Source of the DNA: an uncultured delta proteobacterium
Lineage (GTDB): Bacteria; Desulfobacterota; Syntrophorhabdia; Syntrophorhabdales; WCHB1-27
Direction of reading: 5' to 3'
DNA: 64,000 bases
NCBI GenBank assembly: GCA_963810935.1
Contig: CAWEPK010000008.1
Location: 1 to 64,000, forward strand
Shown here in pieces: positions 18,859 to 37,955 of the stretch; the first letter of the stretch is position 1, and the number at the start of each line of letters is the position of its first letter. The notes below the pieces were generated by a model. That model worked only from the letters and a program-made list of their open reading frames with translations, searched no databases and had not been told where the DNA came from. The position numbers and the translations under genes are program-made.

Positions 18859-19513
18859 TGTCCAAGCCTCCTGTCAGCTTACGGGCCAGCTTCGCCGCGA
18901 GCGATGCGTTTGCGGCATAGCCGTTCGCGCCTATCCGCTCAGCGAATCCTTTCGAGATGGGCCCGCCGCCGACCATCACCCTGACCCGGTCTTTCATGTT
19001 GCCTTTTTTCAGAAGCGCCACGACTTCTTTCATCCCGTTCATCGTAGTCGTCATCAGCGTGGAGAGGGCGATGATCCGTGCGTCCGTCTCTTTCGCCTTT
19101 TCGATAAACGCCCTGGGGGAAACGTCCCTCCCGAGATCGACGACATCGAAGCCTGATGTCTCCAGCATGATCTTCACGAGGTTCTTGCCTATGTCGTGGG
19201 TATCACCTTCAACCACGCCGATGACGACCTTTACCTTGGTCCCGCCGTCATCAACGGGCAGGTGCGACTTGAGGACATCGAGGCCGGCGTACATGGCGTC
19301 GGAGCAAAGCAAGAGCTCCGGTATAAAGTATTCCTCCGCTTCATAGAGCTTACCGGCCCTGTTCATTCCGTCGGATAGACCCTTGTTGATTGCCCGATAG
19401 GCGTCGAGTTTGCCATCTGCCACCGCTCTCGATATTCTCACGGTTTCTTCTTCATCCATATCGAGAACGGCGTCCGAAAGGGATTTATATAAACGTTCTT
19501 TTAGTATTGCCAT
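18851..19513 (-). CDS. Methyltransferase-cognate corrinoid protein
   Basis: GDTHDIGKNLV, STLMTTTM and MVGGGP B12-binding motifs. Confidence 0.92.
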   Translation of the reverse strand: MAILKERLYKSLSDAVLDMDEEETVRISRAVADGKLDAYRAINKGLSDGMNRAGKLYEAEEYFIPELLLCSDAMYAGLDVLKSHLPVDDGGTKVKVVIGVVEGDTHDIGKNLVKIMLETSGFDVVDLGRDVSPRAFIEKAKETDARIIALSTLMTTTMNGMKEVVALLKKGNMKDRVRVMVGGGPISKGFAERIGANGYAANASLAAKLARKLTGGLDNG

Positions 19514-19691
19514 TTATCTTATCTCACAATGTTTTTGTAAACCCCGGATAGTTCCTTTCGCACCTCTTTATGGTGCGGTGTTCCGGCCGTGGCTGAGCAT
19601 CCGCCTTTCCGCAAAGAAAGGCTTCTTCAGCGCTATAGCCGATGTTGGATGAGTTTACGAAAGGAGGAATAAGGTGGGGGGGAAGATCAAG

Positions 19692-19817
19692 CTAGAGGGG
19701 AACGACCGGACGATGAGACACCTCTCCCTCCTTCCGTGACATTTTAAGGCCTACCCTAGGCCTTTCGCGGCCATACGCGACCGCTCACGTGAGAGAAAAG
19801 GGCGCCTGACGAGGCAT
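19692..19817 (-). CDS. Putative selenocysteine leader peptide A (MPRQAPFSLT-U-AVAYGRERPRVGLKMSRKEGEVSHRPVVPL)
   Basis: SD AAAGGAGGTGA; ATG 19817; in-frame TGA 19787-19785; hairpins follow; TAG 19694-19692. Confidence 0.65.
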
Positions 19818-19856
19818 GGTCTCACCTCCTTTACCTTTCAAGTCGAATCGTCCGTA

Positions 19857-19885
19857 ATGCTAAATTAAATATTTCCGTATGTCAA
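19857..19885 (-). promoter_or_regulatory. sigma70 promoter for leader A and the corrinoid operon
   Basis: TTGACA-N17-TAGCAT on the minus strand. Confidence 0.75.
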
Positions 19886-19911
19886 ACGTAATCAAGGCGT
19901 GCGAAAGGTAT

Positions 19912-19941
19912 TTGACTTGCGGACAGGTTCGGGTATAGAGT
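19912..19941 (+). promoter_or_regulatory. sigma70 promoter for leader B and selD
   Basis: TTGACT-N16-TATAGA (or N18-TAGAGT). Confidence 0.55.
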
Positions 19942-19990
19942 TAAGCAGCAACGCGCACTCGCAAGTAAAAATAAACAGTAAAGGTGTGCA

Positions 19991-20095
19991 ATGTTCAAGA
20001 TTTGCGCGTGAATTGAAACAGGGGCGCCGGGTGGCGCGCTTGGCTTCGCCTCCATACGTCGGGTAATGGAGCAGTCTCTCCTCGCGGTCGTTTAA
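19991..20095 (+). CDS. Putative selenocysteine leader peptide B (MFKICA-U-IETGAPGGALGFASIRRVMEQSLLAVV)
   Basis: SD AAAGGTG; ATG 19991; TGA 20009-20011; SECIS-like GCGCC-GGGT-GGCGC with the loop starting at +18; TAA 20093-20095. Confidence 0.65.
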
Positions 20096-20114
20096 CCTTC
20101 CAGGGCTTCTCCTT

Positions 20115-20144
20115 GCGGCCGGCGCATGCCGGCCGTTGTTATTT
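20115..20144 (+). terminator. Attenuator-type terminator in the selD leader
   Basis: GCGGCCGGC-GCAT-GCCGGCCGT followed by TGTTATTT. Confidence 0.6.
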
Positions 20145-20191
20145 GTCCGTCTCAATATAGCAAGGGGCAAAATTCGTTAAAGGAGAGGCAC

Positions 20192-21217
20192 ATGGAAACA
20201 GCACTTACGCAGCACGCCCGTTTCGGGGGGTGCGGGGCGAAGATCGGCCCCGGCGACCTTTCGAACATACTCTGCGGGATCGACATCCCCGAGGACGCCA
20301 ACGTAATCGTCGGTCTCAAAGGCTTCGAGGACGCAGGCGTCTACCGCATCACCGATGAATTGGCCGTCGTCCAGACAGTCGATTTTTTCACGCCTGTCGT
20401 GAACGACCCGTACACGTTCGGCAGGATCGCGGCGGCCAATGCCCTTTCGGACATCTACGCAATGGGCGCGAATCCGGTGACTGCCCTCAACCTCGTTTGT
20501 TTCCCGCCAAAGAAGCTCGATATAAGCATACTGCGCGATATCCTGCGCGGGGGCATCGACAAGGTAAGGGAAGCGGGGGCGAGCCTGCTGGGCGGCCACA
20601 GCGTAGATGACGATGAGGTCAAGTACGGCCTGTCCGTGACGGGCCTTGTACATCCCGACAGGATCGTGAGGAACGAGGGCGCCGGGCCGGGCGACCTGCT
20701 CGTCCTCACGAAGCCGCTGGGTACGGGTATCCTCATAAGCGCCATGAAAGGAAATCAGGTGTCTCCGGAGACGGAGGCGCAGGTGTCGTCCGTCATGGCG
20801 ACGCTTAACAGGCAGGCATCCAAGGCGATGCTCGCAGCGGGCGCCCATGCTGCTACGGACGTGACGGGCTTCGGCCTTGCGGGCCATCTCAAGGAGATGA
20901 TAAAGGAGGACATCGGCGCGGAAATTGACGCCGCAATGCTGCCTTATTTTCCCGAGGCGGAGGGCCTTGCAGCCGCCGGGTTCCTCCCGAGCGGCTTCTA
21001 CAGGAACAGGGATTTTTACTCGCCGTCCGTGGAGTCGGAGGTGGACGGCTTCTTGTTCGACCTGATATTCGACCCCCAGTCATCGGGCGGGCTTCTCATC
21101 GCCCTCGGGGAGGGCGATATGGAGGCTTTCGACAGGGAGGCGAAAGGCCGCTCCGTGGATTACCGGGTGATAGGCCGCTTCACGGACGGGCCGAAAGGGA
21201 AGATACACGTCGCCTGA
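20192..21217 (+). CDS. selD: Selenide, water dikinase (selenophosphate synthetase), Cys form
   Basis: GGCGAKIG (TGC codon), QTVDFFTPVV, AANALSDIYAMG, TDVTGFGLAGHL and DPQSSGGLL. Confidence 0.95.
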   Translation: METALTQHARFGGCGAKIGPGDLSNILCGIDIPEDANVIVGLKGFEDAGVYRITDELAVVQTVDFFTPVVNDPYTFGRIAAANALSDIYAMGANPVTALNLVCFPPKKLDISILRDILRGGIDKVREAGASLLGGHSVDDDEVKYGLSVTGLVHPDRIVRNEGAGPGDLLVLTKPLGTGILISAMKGNQVSPETEAQVSSVMATLNRQASKAMLAAGAHAATDVTGFGLAGHLKEMIKEDIGAEIDAAMLPYFPEAEGLAAAGFLPSGFYRNRDFYSPSVESEVDGFLFDLIFDPQSSGGLLIALGEGDMEAFDREAKGRSVDYRVIGRFTDGPKGKIHVA

Positions 21218-21281
21218 ACGCCTTACGGCCCTTACGCAGAGAGTTGCGGGGAACCGACAAGTTGAAGGAGGAGAAGAGAAG

Positions 21282-21734
21282 ATGAAGGAATTCGAGCCCA
21301 ACATTGTTGCGTATTGTTGCGAGTACTGCGGGTATGCCGCAGCCGACCTTGCCGGCTCCATGCGGATTTCGTATCCCGCCAACGTGAAGATCGTCAAGAT
21401 CCCGTGCACCGGCAGGTTCGACATCATCCACGCACTTAAGGCCTTCGAGTCGGGTGCGGACGGGGTCTTCCTCGTTGGATGTCTCGAAGGGAATTGTCAT
21501 TTCGAGACAGGGAACCTGCGGGCCAAAAAGCGGGTCGAACATCTCCGCCGCCTGCTGGACGAGTGCGGGATAGGCGGCGACCGCTCGGGCATGTACAACA
21601 TGTCTTCCGCAATGGGCAGGCAGTTCGCGGAAGCGGCACGCGAGATCACGGAAAAGGTAAGGTCGCTTGGACCCAACCCTGCGAGGAAAGCGAGGAAGAG
21701 GGGCGGCGAACACACCGTCGGGGCAGCCCTGTAG
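21282..21734 (+). CDS. mvhD: MvhD/FlpD-type [2Fe-2S] hydrogenase delta subunit, Cys form
   Basis: CCEYCGYAAADLAG, PCTGR and GADGVFLVGCLEGNCHF. Confidence 0.9.
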   Translation: MKEFEPNIVAYCCEYCGYAAADLAGSMRISYPANVKIVKIPCTGRFDIIHALKAFESGADGVFLVGCLEGNCHFETGNLRAKKRVEHLRRLLDECGIGGDRSGMYNMSSAMGRQFAEAAREITEKVRSLGPNPARKARKRGGEHTVGAAL

Positions 21735-21782
21735 CCGGAAGCAACCGCCGGGGGCTTATCCTGCCCGGCCCCTTAGCGGCTA

Positions 21783-21811
21783 TTGACTTTGCGCGGGTGC
21801 CCTTATACTAT
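21783..21811 (+). promoter_or_regulatory. sigma70 promoter for leader C
   Basis: TTGACT-N17-TACTAT. Confidence 0.7.
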
Positions 21812-21844
21812 ATATGTGGCCGGTGCAATCGCCGGCAGGATAAA

Positions 21845-21946
21845 ATGATGAAAATATACGGGATAATATTTGTTCCATTGAGCTGAGAAGCGAGCGGGAG
21901 GCCCGTGAGGTCTCCACTTCCGTCCGCTGCCGCTTCACCGCCCTGA
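21845..21946 (+). CDS. Putative selenocysteine leader peptide C (MMKIYGIIFVPLS-U-EASGRPVRSPLPSAAASPP)
   Basis: SD AGGA; TGA 21884-21886; then 10 nt and GGAGGCC-CGTGA-GGTCTCC; second TGA 21944-21946. Confidence 0.7.
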
Positions 21947-21960
21947 CCCTTCTTTTTTGG

Positions 21961-22019
21961 ACCTCTCGGGAAATCCGGGCGCGAAGATGTCGCGGCCGGA
22001 TTTTTTGTCTCCGGGAGGT
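21961..22019 (+). terminator. Terminator / SD-sequestering hairpin upstream of the double-cubane reductase gene
   Basis: AAATCCGG.GCGCGA-AGATG-TCGCG.GCCGGATTTTTT; the outer ACCTCTCGG pairs with CCGGGAGGT, which contains the SD. Confidence 0.7.
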
Positions 22020-22023
22020 TTAA

Positions 22024-23211
22024 ATGCCTGACAGCAATCAAATATATCCATATGCGGTCGAGCCGCTGATCGAGGACGACTACGCAGGCGAGCCGCCCGC
22101 CAAGCGCCTCCTTGCGTATCTTCAGAGCCGGCGCGAGGCCGGCTCTAAGATCGTGGGCATCTACTGCGGCTACGCGCCGGTAGAGATAATCCGCGCCCTC
22201 GGCCTCGTGCCCGCTTCGCTCTGCGCGTTCTCAAACGCGACGATAGAAGCTGCTGAGGCGGTGCTGCCCGCCAACCTTTGTCCCCTTATAAAATCGAGCT
22301 ACGGCTTTATCATGAAAGACGCCTGTCCTTTCTTTGCGGTCTCCGACGCGGTGGTGGCCGAGACGACGTGCGACGGCAAGAAGAAGATGTTCGAGCTGAT
22401 CGCAGACCGCAAGCCGATGCACGTCATGGACCTGCCGCAGGTGCCGGACGAGCCGGAGGCGCTCGACAACTGGACCACGATGATCCGCAAGCTTCAGAGG
22501 TTCCTCGAATCCGTGTTCGGCGGCAAGGCAACCGACGAACAGATAGAGTCTGCCATCCATGACACGAACGAGAAGGCCCGGCGCATGAATGAGATATTCG
22601 AATACGCGGCCCTCAACCCGCCGGTGATAGGGTGGCCCGAGCTTTATGACGCCCTTTTCCTGGGCCAGGGCGCATCGGGGGCCGACCTCGCGCCCATACT
22701 CGACGGGATGCTTGAGAAGCTCGAAAAACGAAAACGCGACGGTTACGTCTATGGGCCGAAAGGCGCGCCCAGGGTCATGGTGACGGGGTGTCCCGTAGGC
22801 GGTGATTCGCTAAAGGTGCTTACGGCGATAGAAGAGGCGGGAGGGGTAGTCGTCGCACTCGATTCATGCTCCGGCATGAAGCCCTACGCGGACTACATCG
22901 AAGAAGGCACGGGGGACCCCGTGCGCGCGATGGCTGCGCGATACCTGAAGGTCCCGTGCTCCTGCATGACGCCGAACAGGCGCCGGCTCACGGAGATTGA
23001 CAGGCTTATCGAAAAGTTCAGGCCGGACGCGGTCGTGGACGTAGTCCTCCAGGGGTGCCATTCGTACAACATAGAATCGATCAAGGTGGGTGAGAGGGTG
23101 CGGACGAACCACGGCCTGCCTTTTCTCACCGTAGTCACCGATTACTCACAGGGCGATATCGGGCAGATGCGGACGCGAATGGAGGCTCTTCTGGAAATGT
23201 GCAGGCAATGA
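22024..23211 (+). CDS. Double-cubane-cluster reductase (2-hydroxyacyl-CoA dehydratase D family)
   Basis: YCGYAP, LCPLIKSSYG, CPFF, ETTCDGKKKM, DSCSG, PCSCMTPN and GCHSY. Confidence 0.85.
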   Translation: MPDSNQIYPYAVEPLIEDDYAGEPPAKRLLAYLQSRREAGSKIVGIYCGYAPVEIIRALGLVPASLCAFSNATIEAAEAVLPANLCPLIKSSYGFIMKDACPFFAVSDAVVAETTCDGKKKMFELIADRKPMHVMDLPQVPDEPEALDNWTTMIRKLQRFLESVFGGKATDEQIESAIHDTNEKARRMNEIFEYAALNPPVIGWPELYDALFLGQGASGADLAPILDGMLEKLEKRKRDGYVYGPKGAPRVMVTGCPVGGDSLKVLTAIEEAGGVVVALDSCSGMKPYADYIEEGTGDPVRAMAARYLKVPCSCMTPNRRRLTEIDRLIEKFRPDAVVDVVLQGCHSYNIESIKVGERVRTNHGLPFLTVVTDYSQGDIGQMRTRMEALLEMCRQ

Positions 23212-24390
23212 AGCCCATCTATTTCGATAATGCGGCTACCTCGTGGCCCAAGCCGCCCGCTGTGATAGAGGCGATGGCGCAGGTTCAACGACGCGGTAGG
23301 GGGCAACCCCGGCCGCTCCGGCCACAGGCTTTCCATCGAGGCGGCCCGCGTAGTCTTCGAGGCGAGGGAGCTTGTGGCGCAGCTTATCGGCGCCCCCGAC
23401 CCGCTCTCTGTCGTTTTCACGAAGAACGCAACGGAGGCGCTCAACTGCGTCCTTCTCGGCCTGCTCAAACCGGGCGACCACGTTGTCACGACGTCCATCG
23501 AGCATAATTCGGTGATGCGGCCCCTGCGCTTTCTCGAAGGGCAGGGCGTAGAGCTTTCCATTGCGCGCTGCTCGCCTGCGGGAGAGCTGGACCCGGAAGA
23601 CGCAGCGGCCTGCATGAGAAAGAATACCCGCGCCGTTGTGGCGACCCACGCCTCCAACGTCACGGGCACATTGCTTCCCATAGAGGAGCTTGCGGAAATC
23701 GCGCACCGGTACGATGCGCTCCTGGTTGCGGACGCTTCCCAGACTGCGGGCTGCGTCCCGATAGACGTTGCCGCATCGGGCATCGACGTCCTCTGTTTTA
23801 CGGGTCACAAGTCCCTCCTAGGTCCGCAGGGGACGGGCGGCTTCTACGTGCGCAAAGGGGTCGAAGAACGCCTTCTCCCGCTCATGCGGGGCGGCACGGG
23901 AAGCGCCTCCGAATCGGAGGAGCAGCCTGAGTTTTTGCCGGACAGGTTCGAGTCGGGCACACCCAACACCATCGGCCTCGCGGGACTCGCCGCAGGCGTC
24001 CGTTTCGTGCTTGACGACGGGGTAGGGCGCATCCGGGAGAGGGAGATCGGCCTGACGCGGCAGTTTCTTGAAGGGGCCGGGGCTATCCTGGGCATAACCG
24101 TTTACGGGCCGCCGGAGGCGGACCGGCGCACAGCCGTCGTCTCCTTCAACCTGAAGGGCGGGAGTCCGTCGGAGCTTGCCTTCGACCTCGACGAGCGTTT
24201 CGCCGTCCTGTGCCGTCCGGGCCTGCATTGCGCCCCTGCCGCGCATCGCACCATAGGCACCTTCCCGCAAGGGGCCGTGCGGTTCAGCTTCGGATTCTAC
24301 ACGACTGCGGATGAGGTCCGCGCCGGGCTGGCCGCTATGGCGCAATTGAGCGCCGAACACTATGCTTCCAAAGGAGGAACTAATGTCTGA
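23208..24390 (+). CDS. Cysteine desulfurase/selenocysteine lyase-family (class V PLP) enzyme; apparent 1-nt insertion near 23280
   Basis: IYFDNAATSWPKP is out of frame with NPGRSGH...EHNSV, TGHKSLLGPQG and RPGLHCAP. Confidence 0.88.
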
Positions 24391-24988
24391 GCTGGTGAAT
24401 GCGAAAGGCCTTGCCTGCCCGGAACCCGTTATACTGGCAAAAAAGGCGCTCGATGCGCATGACGAGGTTACGGTGCTGGTCGATAATGAGATGTCGCTGG
24501 AGAACGTGCAGCGCCTGGCCTCATCTTCGGGATGCGCAGTCGAGACTATAGCAGAGGCGGGCGGGGTCTTCCGTCTCGAAATAAAAAAACAGCAGGGCAA
24601 AGCGACGCCGTGCGCTGCGTCGCCGGGACCCGCGCCTGTGCAGAGCAGCCAGGGGCCTACCATATTCGTTATCGCGTCGAATATCATGGGCTACGGTAAC
24701 GACGACCTGGGCGCGCTCCTGATGAAAGCGTTCATCCATACGGCCGTTGACCTGGAACGCTTACCCGACATGATGATCTTATACAACACGGGTGTTAAGC
24801 TGGCCGCGCCGGATTCAGGCGCGCTCGACGACCTGAAGGCGCTCGAAGAGAAAGGGGTGAAGATACTCGTCTGCGGCACGTGCGTCAATTTCTTTGACCT
24901 GACAGGCAAGATCGGCGCGGGGACCGTCTCCAATATGTACGACATAGCGGGCGCGCTATCGAGTGCGGGCAGAATCGTGAAGCCTTGA
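24383..24988 (+). CDS. yedF: Selenium-metabolism protein YedF (TusA/SirA plus DsrE-like domains)
   Basis: KGLACPEPVI, YNTGVKL, LVCGTC and VSNMYDI. Confidence 0.85.
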   Translation: MSELVNAKGLACPEPVILAKKALDAHDEVTVLVDNEMSLENVQRLASSSGCAVETIAEAGGVFRLEIKKQQGKATPCAASPGPAPVQSSQGPTIFVIASNIMGYGNDDLGALLMKAFIHTAVDLERLPDMMILYNTGVKLAAPDSGALDDLKALEEKGVKILVCGTCVNFFDLTGKIGAGTVSNMYDIAGALSSAGRIVKP

Positions 24989-25224
24989 AGGAAGAGCAGA
25001 AGCAGCGTTACCTGGTTGCCATGTTCGCTTCCGTCAGCATGGTGATGAAGGCGGAAAAGATACTCAAGGCGGCGGGTGTCCCCCACAAGATAATTCCCGT
25101 ACCCAGGAGCATCAGCTCTGACTGCGGGGTCTGCATCCGCTTACTGCCCGAAGACAGGGAAACCGTAGTTGAGGCGCTCGGGGCCGAGGTGCGCGTGAGC
25201 GAGATACGCGAGCTGGAGCGATGA
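24985..25224 (+). CDS. DUF3343-family small Se/S carrier-like protein
   Basis: IPVPRSISSDCG motif; coupled to yedF. Confidence 0.8.
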   Translation: MKEEQKQRYLVAMFASVSMVMKAEKILKAAGVPHKIIPVPRSISSDCGVCIRLLPEDRETVVEALGAEVRVSEIRELER

Positions 25225-35241: not shown

Positions 35242-37955
35242 TAACCTCCGTACCGTTTAAAGAACCACGTTTTGACGAGGTGCGTCAGGGTGGCGTACGA
35301 AAAGAGGAAGAAAGCGATCCATGCCCAATAAATAGGCGGCAAAGGCACAAACCCCAAGGTAGGCGCGAACGACGAATAGGGCAGCCAGGCGCCGATAGCC
35401 ATCACGAGGATCGTCATGAAGGTCATCGGCATGGACGCGTGGCTGCCTATAAAGGGTATCCGGCGGGTCCTGATGATGTGGACTATCAGCGTCTGGGTCA
35501 GAAGGGATTCCACGAACCATCCCGTATGGAAAAGCCTCGCGGCGGCCTCGCCCGCCAAAGGCCCCGCGCCTGCATAGCCCCGGCACCCGAAAAAGAACCA
35601 CATCAGGGCAAAGGTCGCGTAGTCGAAGATCGAGCTAACCGGCCCTATGAACACCATGAAGCGTTTTATATTGGCTATGTTCCACTTGAGTGGTTTTGTG
35701 ATCTGCTCGGGGTCAACGCTGTCTGTCGGTATGCCGGTCTGGGAAAAATCGTAGAGCAGGTTGTTCAGAAGCACCTGTATGGGCAGCATGGGCAGGAAGG
35801 GCAAGAGGTAGCTGGCGCCGACTACGCTGAACATGTTCCCGAAGTTAGAACTTGCTCCCATCCGTATGTATTTCACTATGTTGGCAAAGACCTTCCGGCC
35901 TTCGATGATGCCCTCGGCGAGAATCAGCAGGCTTTTCTCAAGAAGCACGATGTCCGCCGACTCCTTGGCGACATCGACTGCCGAGTCGACTGATATGCCT
36001 ACGTCTGCCGCCCGGAGGGCCGGCGCATCGTTGATCCCGTCTCCCAGGAACCCTACAACGTGCCCGTTAGACCTGAGGTTGCGGACGATCTCCTCCTTTT
36101 GCGTCGGGGTAAGCTTGACGAAGACATCGGTCTCCCGCACGGTCCTGGAGAAGTCCTCTGCCGACATGGCGGATAGCTCCCCGCCTGTAATGATGGTCTC
36201 TGCCAAAAGGTCGACGTCCCTGCACACCTTTTGCGTGACCAGATAGTTGTCCCCGGTCAGCACCTTCACTTTTACGCCTGCCTGGCTCAAAAGGTCCAGC
36301 GCTTCCGCGGCCTCGGATTTCGGAGGGTCGAAAAATGCGATATACCCGAGGAGGATCATCGCCGATTCGTCGCCGGCCGTGAAAATGCTCTTGTCCCTGG
36401 GAAACTCACGGTATGCGATGCCCAGCACCCGGAAGCCGTCCGTGTTGAGCCTGTCGACCTCCTCGAACAGGTCTGCCCGGATCATTGGGATCAGAGGGTA
36501 CACCTCATCGCCGATCTGGTAGTGGGTGCAGCATGCGTAGATTTCCTCTACGGCCCCTTTGCAGATGAGGACGTTGTCGCCCTCGTAATCGACGACGACC
36601 GACATACGGCGACGCTGAAAGTCGAACGGCAGCTCGTCCACGAGGGTGCAGTCCCGCTCCACGTCGAGGTCCGCGTGCTCGAGCACGGCGCGGTCGATCA
36701 GATTGCGAAGGCCCGTCTGGTAATAGCTGTTCAGGTACGCGTAGGTCAGCACGTCGGTGCTCGGATGGCCGATGATGTCGACGCTGCGCTCCAGCACGAC
36801 CTTGTCCTGGGTGAGAGTACCCGTCTTGTCGGTGCAGAGGATGTCGATGGCGCCGAAGTTCTGGATCGAAGGAAGGCGTTTGACGATGACCTTTTCCTTA
36901 GCCATGGCGAGGGCGCCCTTGGCCAGGTTCACCGTTACGATCATGGGCAACATCTCGGGGGTAAGGCCGACCGCGACCGAAAGGCCGAAGAGAAGGGCTT
37001 CCAGCCAATCGCCCTTGGTCATGCCGACGATGAAGAAGACGGCGCAGACCAGGACGGTCATGTACCTGATCATGAGCCAGGTAAAGGAACGGACGCCCTG
37101 GTCGAAGCTAGTTTCTTCCCTCTCCCCCGCCAGCCGCTCGGAGATAGCCCCGAAGATAGTGTGCGCCCCGGTGTTTATCACAAGCCCCCGGGCGGAGCCG
37201 CTGGTGGCCGTGGTGCCGAGAAAACAGGCGTTCGGCAGCTCCAGGGCGGAGTGGCGCGGGACGTCTTCGGCGTCCGCTGTTTTTTCCACCGCCATCGACT
37301 CGCCGGAGAGGGCCGATTGGCTGACAAAAAAGTCTTTCGTCCAGAAGAGGCGCAGGTCTCCGGGGATGAGCGACCCTGCCTGGAGTAGCACCACGTCGCC
37401 GGGCACGACCTCGGATATCCTTATCTCCACCGCAGCCCCGTCTCTGAGTACGACGGTCCGTGACTGCACGCGTTTCCCAAGGGACTCGACGGCACGGTTC
37501 GAGCGGTTGTCAAGGACGTAGGAAAGGCCTACGCTGAGAAGGACCATCGCGCCGACGATGAAAGACGACCTGATCTCGCCGATGACGCCGGAAACAACGG
37601 CTATAACCAGAAGCTGGATAACCAGGGGGCTTTTGCAGCGATGGAGAATGTCTGCAAAAAAACCGACGTGCCGTGTGTGGGAAAGCTCGTTGGGCCCGTA
37701 TTCGTCCAGCCGGCGTTCGGCCTCTTCGCTATTGAGGCCCCCCGGGGTCGTCCCAAGGACCTTTACGGCCTCGGATACAGGCACTACGCAAAGGTCGATG
37801 AGGCGGCGTTCATCCTCCGGGGTATTGCGGTGATTATTGGCCGCTTGAGGGTCGCGCCTGGACTTATTCGAGAGGTTGGTAAATACGCCCTTGTTCGTTT
37901 TGCAGCCTCCGCTCTTCCCCGGGTGCGCGACGGACCCCGAGACAGGCATGAACAA
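35238..37955 (-). CDS. mgtA: Magnesium-translocating P-type ATPase
   Basis: AVGLTPEMLP, DKTGTLT, PFDFQRRRMSV, GDGINDAP, SSNFGNMFS and FHTGWFVES. Confidence 0.93.
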   Translation of the reverse strand: MFMPVSGSVAHPGKSGGCKTNKGVFTNLSNKSRRDPQAANNHRNTPEDERRLIDLCVVPVSEAVKVLGTTPGGLNSEEAERRLDEYGPNELSHTRHVGFFADILHRCKSPLVIQLLVIAVVSGVIGEIRSSFIVGAMVLLSVGLSYVLDNRSNRAVESLGKRVQSRTVVLRDGAAVEIRISEVVPGDVVLLQAGSLIPGDLRLFWTKDFFVSQSALSGESMAVEKTADAEDVPRHSALELPNACFLGTTATSGSARGLVINTGAHTIFGAISERLAGEREETSFDQGVRSFTWLMIRYMTVLVCAVFFIVGMTKGDWLEALLFGLSVAVGLTPEMLPMIVTVNLAKGALAMAKEKVIVKRLPSIQNFGAIDILCTDKTGTLTQDKVVLERSVDIIGHPSTDVLTYAYLNSYYQTGLRNLIDRAVLEHADLDVERDCTLVDELPFDFQRRRMSVVVDYEGDNVLICKGAVEEIYACCTHYQIGDEVYPLIPMIRADLFEEVDRLNTDGFRVLGIAYREFPRDKSIFTAGDESAMILLGYIAFFDPPKSEAAEALDLLSQAGVKVKVLTGDNYLVTQKVCRDVDLLAETIITGGELSAMSAEDFSRTVRETDVFVKLTPTQKEEIVRNLRSNGHVVGFLGDGINDAPALRAADVGISVDSAVDVAKESADIVLLEKSLLILAEGIIEGRKVFANIVKYIRMGASSNFGNMFSVVGASYLLPFLPMLPIQVLLNNLLYDFSQTGIPTDSVDPEQITKPLKWNIANIKRFMVFIGPVSSIFDYATFALMWFFFGCRGYAGAGPLAGEAAARLFHTGWFVESLLTQTLIVHIIRTRRIPFIGSHASMPMTFMTILVMAIGAWLPYSSFAPTLGFVPLPPIYWAWIAFFLFSYATLTHLVKTWFFKRYGGY

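Follow-up and report, generated by a model that had tools for sequence, protein, structure and literature searches.

We examined leader C, the region upstream of an operon that begins with a double-cubane-cluster reductase gene, in a 64,000-nt stretch of DNA from an uncultured delta proteobacterium of the order Syntrophorhabdales (assembly GCA_963810935.1, contig CAWEPK010000008.1, positions 1 to 64,000). This whole stretch is called the window, and its numbering is used throughout. Leader C holds a promoter, a short open reading frame (ORF) with an in-frame UGA, a hairpin resembling a bacterial selenocysteine insertion sequence (SECIS), an intrinsic terminator and, on either side of that terminator, the Shine-Dalgarno (SD) sequence of the first gene and a strand complementary to it (anti-SD). 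The coordinates are given in Table 1. Sequence and comparison support the anatomy, the family, the reading frame, the SECIS signature and the alternative helices described below; the consequences of ribosome position are derived from thermodynamic models.

The ribosome-binding site of the leader ORF is, by sequence reading, an AGGA at 21838-41, 6 nt before the ATG at 21848; a second in-frame ATG lies at 21845, and either could be the start. The SECIS-like hairpin stands on a lower stem made of segments 1 and 2, in which the G and the A of the UGA are also paired. Segment 1 would fall within the footprint of a ribosome that has the UGA in its A site. The top of the terminator (21977-22000) doubles as the 3' strand of an antiterminator. 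Positions 21961-69 are complementary to CCGGGAGGT (22011-19), and in the minimum free energy (MFE) fold this pairing grows to an anti-SD:SD helix of 14 pairs, 21956-69 with 22011-24, which also covers the A of the start codon. A simple terminator scan of the window did not list the leader C hairpin, because of the mismatch in its stem.

Table 1. Features of leader C, of the operon that follows it and of the other UGA leaders in the window.
Feature	Position	Strand	Description and basis
Leader C promoter	21783-21811	+	Sigma-70-like, TTGACT-17 nt-TACTAT; promoter/terminator scan
Leader ORF	21848-21946	+	12 codons, UGA as codon 13, 19 further codons, stop TGA 21944-46
In-frame UGA	21884-21886	+	Proposed selenocysteine and sensing codon; sequence reading, family conservation
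Segment 1	21885-21897	+	Forms the 5' side of the lower stem in the long SECIS hairpin; MFE fold
SECIS-like upper hairpin	21897-21915	+	7 pairs (one G-U), loop CGUGA, begins 10 nt past the UGA
Segment 2	21919-21943	+	Last leader-ORF codons; pairs either with segment 1 (via 21924-36) or with the terminator (antiterminator)
Anti-SD strand	21956-21969	+	MFE fold, family helix
Intrinsic terminator	21971-22006	+	Hairpin 21971-22003, core 21975-99, one G-G mismatch, loop AGAUG, T6 22001-06
SD and start codon of first gene	22011-22026	+	SD GGGAGG 22013-18; sequestered by 21956-69
Double-cubane-cluster reductase (HGD-D fold), first regulated gene	22024-23211	+	Pfam; NCBIfam NF040772, 444 bits
Selenocysteine-lyase-like desulfurase	23374-24390 as listed	+	NCBIfam TIGR01977/SclA-like
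YedF	24362-24988	+	NCBIfam TIGR03527
67-aa ORF	25021-25224	+	Downstream of YedF
MauE/DoxX-like protein, then rhodanese	3' of the 67-aa ORF	+	Pfam/NCBIfam
selD	20192-21217		Upstream of leader C; Pfam/NCBIfam
Leader B, before selD	19991-20146	+	ATG 19991, 6 codons, UGA 20009, hairpin GCGCC-GGGU-GGCGC, stop 20095
Leader A	19817-19692	-	ATG 19817, 10 codons, UGA 19787, stop 19692

Orthologues of the reductase gene in related genomes bear recognisably homologous leaders. A covariance model (R1), built from an alignment (A1) of the leaders of six relatives, gave 84 matches in 49 of the 96 genomes of the order Syntrophorhabdales, with at most three per genome. Matches were found in three of 151 sampled genomes of the phylum, all three of them members of the order, and none in the 146 sampled phylum genomes outside it. 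A scan of public contigs with a 19-nt degenerate exact pattern yielded mostly chance hits; seven of the 80 loci fetched (8 matches) fitted the model, and their seven carrier records are named Syntrophorhabdus, Syntrophorhabdaceae or "Deltaproteobacteria bacterium". Rfam scans of 19500-22100, at the gathering score and at E values up to 10, returned nothing relevant, the presence of a bacterial SECIS model in Rfam not having been checked. The comparative analyses below use an alignment (A2) of 72 matches, 71 of which are full-length rows, and the fold tests use 66 distinct in-frame members. A promoter of the form TTGACN-N16-18-TAnnnT occurs within 110 nt upstream of 52 of the 71 leaders, compared with 18 of 2000 control windows.

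The same layout is found in 66 of the 71 full rows: 12 codons, the UGA, 57 or 60 nt (19-20 codons) and a true stop, with the anti-SD, the intrinsic terminator and the first gene's SD coming next. Of the 72 rows, 69 have UGA as the internal stop. In 70 of the 72 rows the terminal stop falls at one and the same place in the alignment, as UAA in 49, UGA in 14 and UAG in 7. Insertions and deletions within the ORF are multiples of three, and the conserved codons Pro10, Pro19, Ala29, Ser31 and Pro33 vary mainly at their third positions; the peptide consensus is ...IFIPLG-U-ETYREPGWLPVVTVFAVSPP. This conservation of frame, stop and wobble indicates that the frame past the UGA is selected as a reading frame, and translation therefore appears to continue in frame beyond it, presumably with selenocysteine (Sec) inserted at the UGA. 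The residue before the UGA is small (Gly or Asp in most copies) and the peptide ends in Ser-Pro-Pro; a small residue before the UGA and such an ending may slow release at both stops.

The family helix of the hairpin after the UGA is 97.8% paired, with double changes in five of seven pairs. In all 71 rows the 5-nt loop carries G at its second position and G or U at its third; 66 rows close the stem with CC/GG, and in 68 the loop begins 17 nt past the UGA. The two FdhA SECIS hairpins of the source genome also close with CC/GG; their loops, GGGCU and GGUCU, begin 18 nt past the UGA. By its UGA, its fixed spacing and its loop G followed by G or U, the leader hairpin fits a bacterial SECIS, and SelB is predicted to bind it. 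The UGA might instead simply end a leader peptide of 12 residues, and the hairpin be a mere attenuator or pause hairpin without any part for selenocysteine. Such a reading agrees with the lack of a matching Rfam family; the pairing of the G and A of the UGA in the lower stem could fix the codon, and an open frame of 20 codons has a chance probability of about 0.4. We nevertheless regard it as very improbable, since the downstream stop keeps its columns while its three codons interchange, indels respect the frame, the hairpin matches the genome's own FdhA SECIS in loop motif, closing pairs and spacing, and all three UGA leaders of the window precede selenium-linked operons.

The OFF-state consensus of the family consists of five helices, namely a basal helix, the lower stem (segment 1 with segment 2), the SECIS tip, the terminator and the anti-SD:SD helix. 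Together they are 89.7% paired, and 25 of their 39 pairs have changed on both sides. The lower stem (columns 38-45 with 90-97) is paired in 77.2% of cells, the terminator in 91.0% and the anti-SD:SD helix (columns 123-129 with 194-200) in 95.2%, the last with double changes in five of six pairs. When all column pairs were ranked by corrected mutual information, the apex pair of the terminator came first. The second was the pair 90:162, which joins the third position of codon 29 to the 3' arm of the terminator, and this signal led to the recognition of an extended antiterminator. In this helix the last 16 nt of the ORF (columns 86-101) form 15 pairs with the entire upper part of the terminator (columns 145-166), which in the window corresponds to 21919-43 with 21977-22000. 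Pairing in the antiterminator amounts to 88.5%, whereas slid controls range from 30 to 65%; both sides have changed in 40 cells, the covariation score is 0.210, and none of 500 shuffles reached either value. Related sequences can exceed shuffles without any structure, and we count this covariation as good and not as conclusive. Taken together, alignment and folding identify the 3' end of the leader ORF as the probable conserved competitor of the terminator. A Rho-dependent reading, with the C-rich tract 21912-58 as a rut site, was set aside, the canonical intrinsic terminator being conserved.

The same codons could be conserved for their product. If the ORF chiefly encoded a functional selenopeptide of 33 residues, which might carry selenium or serve the downstream enzymes as a substrate, the RNA structures would be of secondary importance. 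The conserved peptide and the wobble at several conserved codons speak for this. However, most of the conserved codons coincide with conserved helices, and a selenopeptide leaves the terminator, the anti-SD and the covarying antiterminator without a role. The first genes after the leader copies are, moreover, of unrelated kinds (two reductase paralogues, HdrA-, MvhD- and DoxX-like genes, tRNAs). Of the explanations weighed here we consider this the least probable.

Thermodynamic folds were computed with a ribosome footprint taken as -15 to +11 around the A site, in line with toeprinting and helicase work. With the UGA in the A site, the ribosome would cover approximately 21869-21895 and melt the lower stem, and the SECIS tip at 21897-21915 remains folded (P = 0.96 in the window fold). 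The RNA was ended at 22000, where the hairpin is complete and the U-tract still in the hybrid. Under these settings the probability of the terminator in the window was 0.98 without a ribosome, 0.04 with the ribosome at the UGA and 0.99 with the ribosome at the ORF stop. For the 66 family members, with the RNA cut at the base of the hairpin, the terminator exceeded a probability of 0.5 in 42 without a ribosome, in 24 with the ribosome at the UGA and in 64 with the ribosome at the stop. The difference between stop and UGA was above 0.3 in 43 of 66 members and in the opposite direction in none. Shuffling segment 2 in the UGA state brought the terminator back in 58 of 66 members (median 0.90); in the control, where an equally long 5' part of the ORF was shuffled, there was no restoration (terminator in 20 of 66). 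These models, applied to conserved sequences, predict that the antiterminator is gated by ribosome position.

A preliminary description of this locus, made from its sequence, had placed the switch elsewhere. It held that a ribosome paused at the UGA melts the 5' arm of the SECIS, that the loop and 3' arm thus freed, CCCGTGAGGTC (21902-12), capture the anti-SD segment GACCTCTCGGG (21960-70), and that the SD is thereby released and the operon turned ON in low selenium. Every sequence feature it named is present where it was placed: there is a leader ORF with a UGA and a SECIS-like hairpin, the terminator is nested in the anti-SD:SD helix, and mutually exclusive structures do exist. The segment 21902-12 was less exactly described, for it begins with the last 2 nt of the 5' arm, runs through the loop and ends after 4 nt of the 3' arm. 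Ten of its 11 nt are indeed complementary to 21960-70, the exception being a U-U mismatch, and the pairing amounts to -20.6 kcal/mol as an isolated duplex (z = -4.9 against shuffles, in the window), near the strength of SD:anti-SD (-21.0 kcal/mol). With up to one mismatch the 11-mer occurs three times in the window against 2.19 expected (both strands, 64 kb), and a same-strand copy within about 100 nt has a chance of about 0.002. Two relatives of the same genus (L030, L042) have the same sequences for both segments, family duplexes of SECIS loop and 3' arm with the anti-SD show a mild excess, with a median of -7.0 against -4.2 when shuffled (z below -2 in 31 of 66), and in folds of nascent RNA with a ribosome one or two codons beyond the UGA the pairing reaches probabilities of 0.35-0.46.

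In spite of this, we give that switch little chance of being right. The corresponding columns are paired in 60.3% of cells over 72 rows, compared with 60.1% in shuffles and 40-60% in slid positions; they show fewer pair types than the shuffles and no excess of covariation. Strong as the pairing is in the source genus, it is not conserved in the family. The footprint at the UGA melts the lower stem and leaves the tip folded, contrary to the melting that had been assumed, and a melted SECIS could not recruit SelB. In full-length RNA the pairing has a probability of 0.00 beside 0.97 for anti-SD:SD and 0.99 for the terminator. The anti-SD:SD helix of the window holds at 0.97, and the SD is sequestered, at every ribosome position. 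Nor could the pairing cause antitermination, for it does not touch the terminator stem, which it leaves intact (0.99). At most 21902-12:21960-70 may be a local auxiliary element in the source genus. The other half of the proposal, that read-through to 21946 lets the terminator and the sequestering helix form, agrees with the folds at the stop given above, in the window and in the family. The constrained folds called for in the preliminary description, with the ribosome at the UGA and at the stop, thus bear out a switch between two states and assign the competing helix to the end of the ORF instead.

We conclude that leader C is probably a ribosome-mediated attenuator that uses a selenocysteine UGA as its sensing codon and reads the supply of Sec-tRNA(Sec) and SelB. 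Transcription would start from the leader's own promoter, and a ribosome would translate the leader ORF of 33 codons. At codon 13, the UGA at 21884, this ribosome would mask segment 1 (approximately 21885-95), and the SECIS tip, still folded, would lie at the mRNA entrance, available for binding by SelB with its Sec-tRNA(Sec). For as long as the ribosome waited, segment 2, deprived of its partner, would pair with the emerging terminator strand 21977-22000; the terminator would be blocked, and RNA polymerase would enter the operon of reductase, Sec lyase and YedF. If Sec were inserted, the ribosome would move on to the stop at 21944 and sit on segment 2, and the terminator would form. In transcripts that escaped termination, the flanking 14-bp anti-SD:SD helix would hide the ribosome-binding site. 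Without any translation, segments 1 and 2 would pair into the long SECIS hairpin and termination would again follow.

The most likely sign of this control, as in the preliminary description, is that genes for selenium acquisition are ON when Sec insertion fails and OFF when it is possible. Selenium sufficiency would mean OFF because Sec insertion alone brings the ribosome to the stop. This direction is favoured by the retention of both the frame and the stop position, by the homeostatic logic of the genes concerned (selD, Sec lyase, YedF) and by the gene context in relatives. The neighbouring selD, Sec-lyase-like and YedF genes, together with the linkage of family members to selC* and SelB-like genes described below, fit a selenium-shortage regulon. 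The structural states by themselves leave the sign unfixed, and the reverse can be argued. In Kotini et al. 2015 (PMC4513850), Sec insertion is described as slow, with a long pause at the UGA, and the SelB complex on the SECIS as blocking release factor 2 (RF2). With selenium, then, slow insertion and exclusion of RF2 would favour the antiterminator, and without it release by RF2 would favour the terminator, so that the operon would be ON at high selenium. We think this unlikely. A conserved extension with a stop that masks segment 2 is sensible only where the outcome of Sec insertion is termination; it is hard to see why selD and genes that mobilise selenium should be under positive feedback; and the linkage to selC*/selB*, a tRNA-Sec look-alike charged with Cys, fits shortage.

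Several observations weigh against an attenuator that is ON at selenium shortage. A search for sequencing runs of this DNA returned four DNA runs of one study and no RNA run. Since insertion is slow and RF2 excluded, by the same source (PMC4513850), the ribosome could dwell longer at the UGA with selenium than without it, and in low selenium release by RF2 at the UGA could let segment 1 pair again. The pairing of the G and A of the UGA could help to keep this codon invariant at the RNA level. In the folds, counting the U-tract as free RNA raised the terminator probability of the window to 0.88 with the ribosome at the UGA, and in the family it weakened the contrast, with 54, 42 and 65 of 66 members above 0.5 for no ribosome, UGA and stop. 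The terminator persists in all three states in 22 of the 66 members, and in 20 it is lost even when no ribosome is present. A duplex test of segment 2 with segment 3 on truncated regions gave a z of only -0.96, a weak value because the part of the helix in the 3' arm had been left out. Leader B showed no terminator switch in the same thermodynamic scan of ribosome positions. The selB homologue of the source genome (G000:C5:224288-226169) was matched as three pieces in separate open frames (model positions 1-168, 175-368 and 496-580), which could reflect frameshifts, assembly errors or a broken gene and which we also count on this side.

The remaining difficulty lies with the SD. No position of the leader ribosome frees it in nested equilibrium folds of the family (median unpaired probability 0.02-0.04, above 0.5 in at most 4 of 66). 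Even with the antiterminator forced, the median accessibility of the SD was only 0.24, at a median cost of +10.7 kcal/mol. On these models we take the anti-SD:SD helix for a lock, conserved in the family, that belongs to the OFF state. Coupling of translation between the leader stop and the start of the first gene was considered and rejected: the stop lies 11-16 nt before the anti-SD, and a terminating ribosome would open one to three base pairs at most.

Leader C can be compared with several known systems. In 2002 Thanbichler and Boeck reportedly described a SECIS-like element in the 5' untranslated region of E. coli selAB that binds the SelB quaternary complex near the start site and represses initiation without decoding of a UGA. 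Leader C resembles it as a SECIS-type leader hairpin for feedback on genes of the selenocysteine pathway. It is not an operator of this selAB type: its hairpin lies within a translated ORF, past an in-frame UGA and some 110 nt away from the downstream SD that would be regulated, and its output includes a terminator. The leader tnaC senses tryptophan through the nascent peptide and acts via Rho, and prfB senses RF2 by frameshifting. As in these two, where the UGA lies in a short ORF or near the beginning of a gene, what a ribosome does at a UGA would set downstream expression; unlike leader C, neither is known to use a SECIS or selenocysteine.

The closest likeness is to the trpL and hisL attenuators. 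Like them, leader C has a short translated ORF, the pairings 1:2, 2:3 and 3:4 and a terminator before the first gene; a ribosome at its sensing codon would mask segment 1, and its stop would let a terminating ribosome mask segment 2. Judged from sequence and folding models, leader C seems to possess all the sequence-level features that define leader-peptide attenuators. The established logic of the trp type, as summarised in the introduction of a 2013 paper on Treponema primitia (PMC3892789), is that a ribosome at the sensing codon permits 2:3 pairing and read-through and that a ribosome at the stop permits the terminator. Unlike trpL and hisL, leader C has as sensing codon a single UGA that needs a SECIS and SelB, in place of a run of sense codons; failure to decode it ends in release by RF2 and not in an indefinite stall; segment pair 1:2 doubles as the SECIS lower stem, and the anti-SD:SD helix wraps the terminator. 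Leader C would thus sense the capacity for recoding, as opposed to a standard aminoacyl-tRNA.

In T. primitia, failed decoding of the UGA of fdhF(Sec) uncouples translation from transcription and alters transcript completion with selenium, according to PMC3892789. That effect occurs within a selenoprotein gene, whose own 3' part is lowered when selenium is scarce, and involves no dedicated leader ORF, antiterminator or SD sequester. The paper also presents attenuation by rare amino acids as only engineered and unreported in nature. A full-text literature search, with subscription papers outside its scope, found no description of a natural leader attenuator based on a selenocysteine codon. For sensing of selenium status, a comparative study (PMC5322559) proposes only a LysR-type regulator. 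A sensor built on the recoding step itself would extend classical attenuation to the 21st amino acid. Leader C would be the natural counterpart of the engineered rare-amino-acid attenuators and a compact selenium reporter.

By annotation, the window appears to carry a selenium gene cluster. Upstream of leader C lies, in addition to selD, an MvhD/VhuD-like gene. In the source genome there are two FdhA genes with an in-frame TGA and three copies of tRNA-Sec (G000:C4:30323-30414, C6:4921-5012 and C11:126664-126755), which score near-identically (71 bits) and are called tRNA-SeC with anticodon tca by ARAGORN. The three tRNA-Sec genes could be true copies or assembly redundancy; the assembly is reported to be 7% contaminated. 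The presence of tRNA-Sec failed as a discriminator, the trait being order-wide, with scores above the cut-off in 77 of the 96 genomes. An in-frame TGA suspected in the reductase orthologues of two relatives proved to be the terminal stop.

Leaders A and B were picked by scanning the window for short ORFs with an in-frame UGA and a stable hairpin after it. Leader B continues past its stop with an anti-SD, CUUCUCCUU, a terminator (20115-36) and the SD of selD. Homologues occur in six of the 96 genomes of the order; all six keep the UGA, and they share the six codons, the GCGCC-GGGU-GGCGC hairpin, 27-28 further codons, the stop, the anti-SD, the terminator and the SD of selD. Leader A precedes a gene for a corrinoid (B12-binding) protein (19513-18851) and two URO-D/MtaA-like methyltransferase genes. 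Two hairpins follow its UGA, the second with a loop of SECIS type, AGGGU, about 27 nt past the UGA. Homologues of leader A were found in five of 41 relatives and as a second copy in the source genome (C1:6595-6702), and the UGA is kept in all seven aligned sequences. The three leaders of the window are unrelated sequence families with the same architecture.

A further kind of UGA leader, which we call type II, stands before the reductase orthologue at three loci of relatives: L012 (G016), L016 (G007) and L017 (G018). It is marked by ...I-I-UGA-[L/S]-V..., a hairpin GGGAGUCCGUGxGxxUCCC and a long 3' region without an obvious U-tract. The genera with type II leaders have few or no R1 matches (g3 none of six genomes, g5 one of three). 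Perhaps, and we hold this at a little below even chance, the order runs a selenium-shortage regulon through "hungry stop codon" attenuators, in which a UGA with its SECIS reports the delivery of Sec-tRNA(Sec) by SelB. Such a regulon would cover selD, the double-cubane reductases with Sec lyase and YedF, the corrinoid methyltransferase system and, in relatives, selC*/selB*. If this is true, the cell turns to selenium scavenging and to a Cys-for-Sec back-up when Sec insertion fails.

The first gene after a leader of the leader C family is most commonly one of two double-cubane reductase paralogues; other members precede HdrA-like, MvhD-like or DoxX-like genes or tRNAs. At many loci (L032, L036-L038, L043, L047, L052-L054 and others) the leader is followed by only a remnant of 20-70 residues of the N-terminus (MSDYTQMW...) of the 426-residue reductase, and then by other genes. 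It looks as if leader and reductase gene start had been copied as a cassette before new operons. Family leaders also stand directly before tRNA-Sec-like tRNAs of about 90 nt, of the selC* type: at L051 1501-3179 (G092:C5), at L107 on the reverse strand (G027:C10), at L236 (G040:C131) and at L238/L093 (G084:C172). The anticodon of these tRNAs is GCA in three genomes and UCA in one, and a SelB-like GTPase gene follows the tRNA in both loci examined. Such a tRNA was found in just one of 60 loci scanned, within short flanks. The pair selC*/selB* is described by Mukai et al. (PMC5389517) and would provide Cys where Sec is missing; here it is apparently placed under the control of a Sec leader. Control in common would place the double-cubane reductases, the MvhD- and HdrA-like and DoxX/rhodanese proteins and selC*/selB* in one physiological setting within selenium metabolism. 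Its 84 copies and clear covariation make the leader family ready to be described as an RNA family.

A second, degenerate copy of the leader C family is present in the source genome (G000:C8:400806-400983, minus strand, locus L098/L106, 72 bits). Its frame is broken after the UGA, CAA replaces the terminal stop and there is no obvious gene downstream. Tandem copies on one strand, a few hundred to 1600 nt apart, occur at G053:C1:142235-142420 and 142572-142757 (L082) and at G006:C48:35537-35713 and 37118-37292; of the two G006 leaders, one is followed by an MvhD-like gene and the next by an HdrA-like gene.

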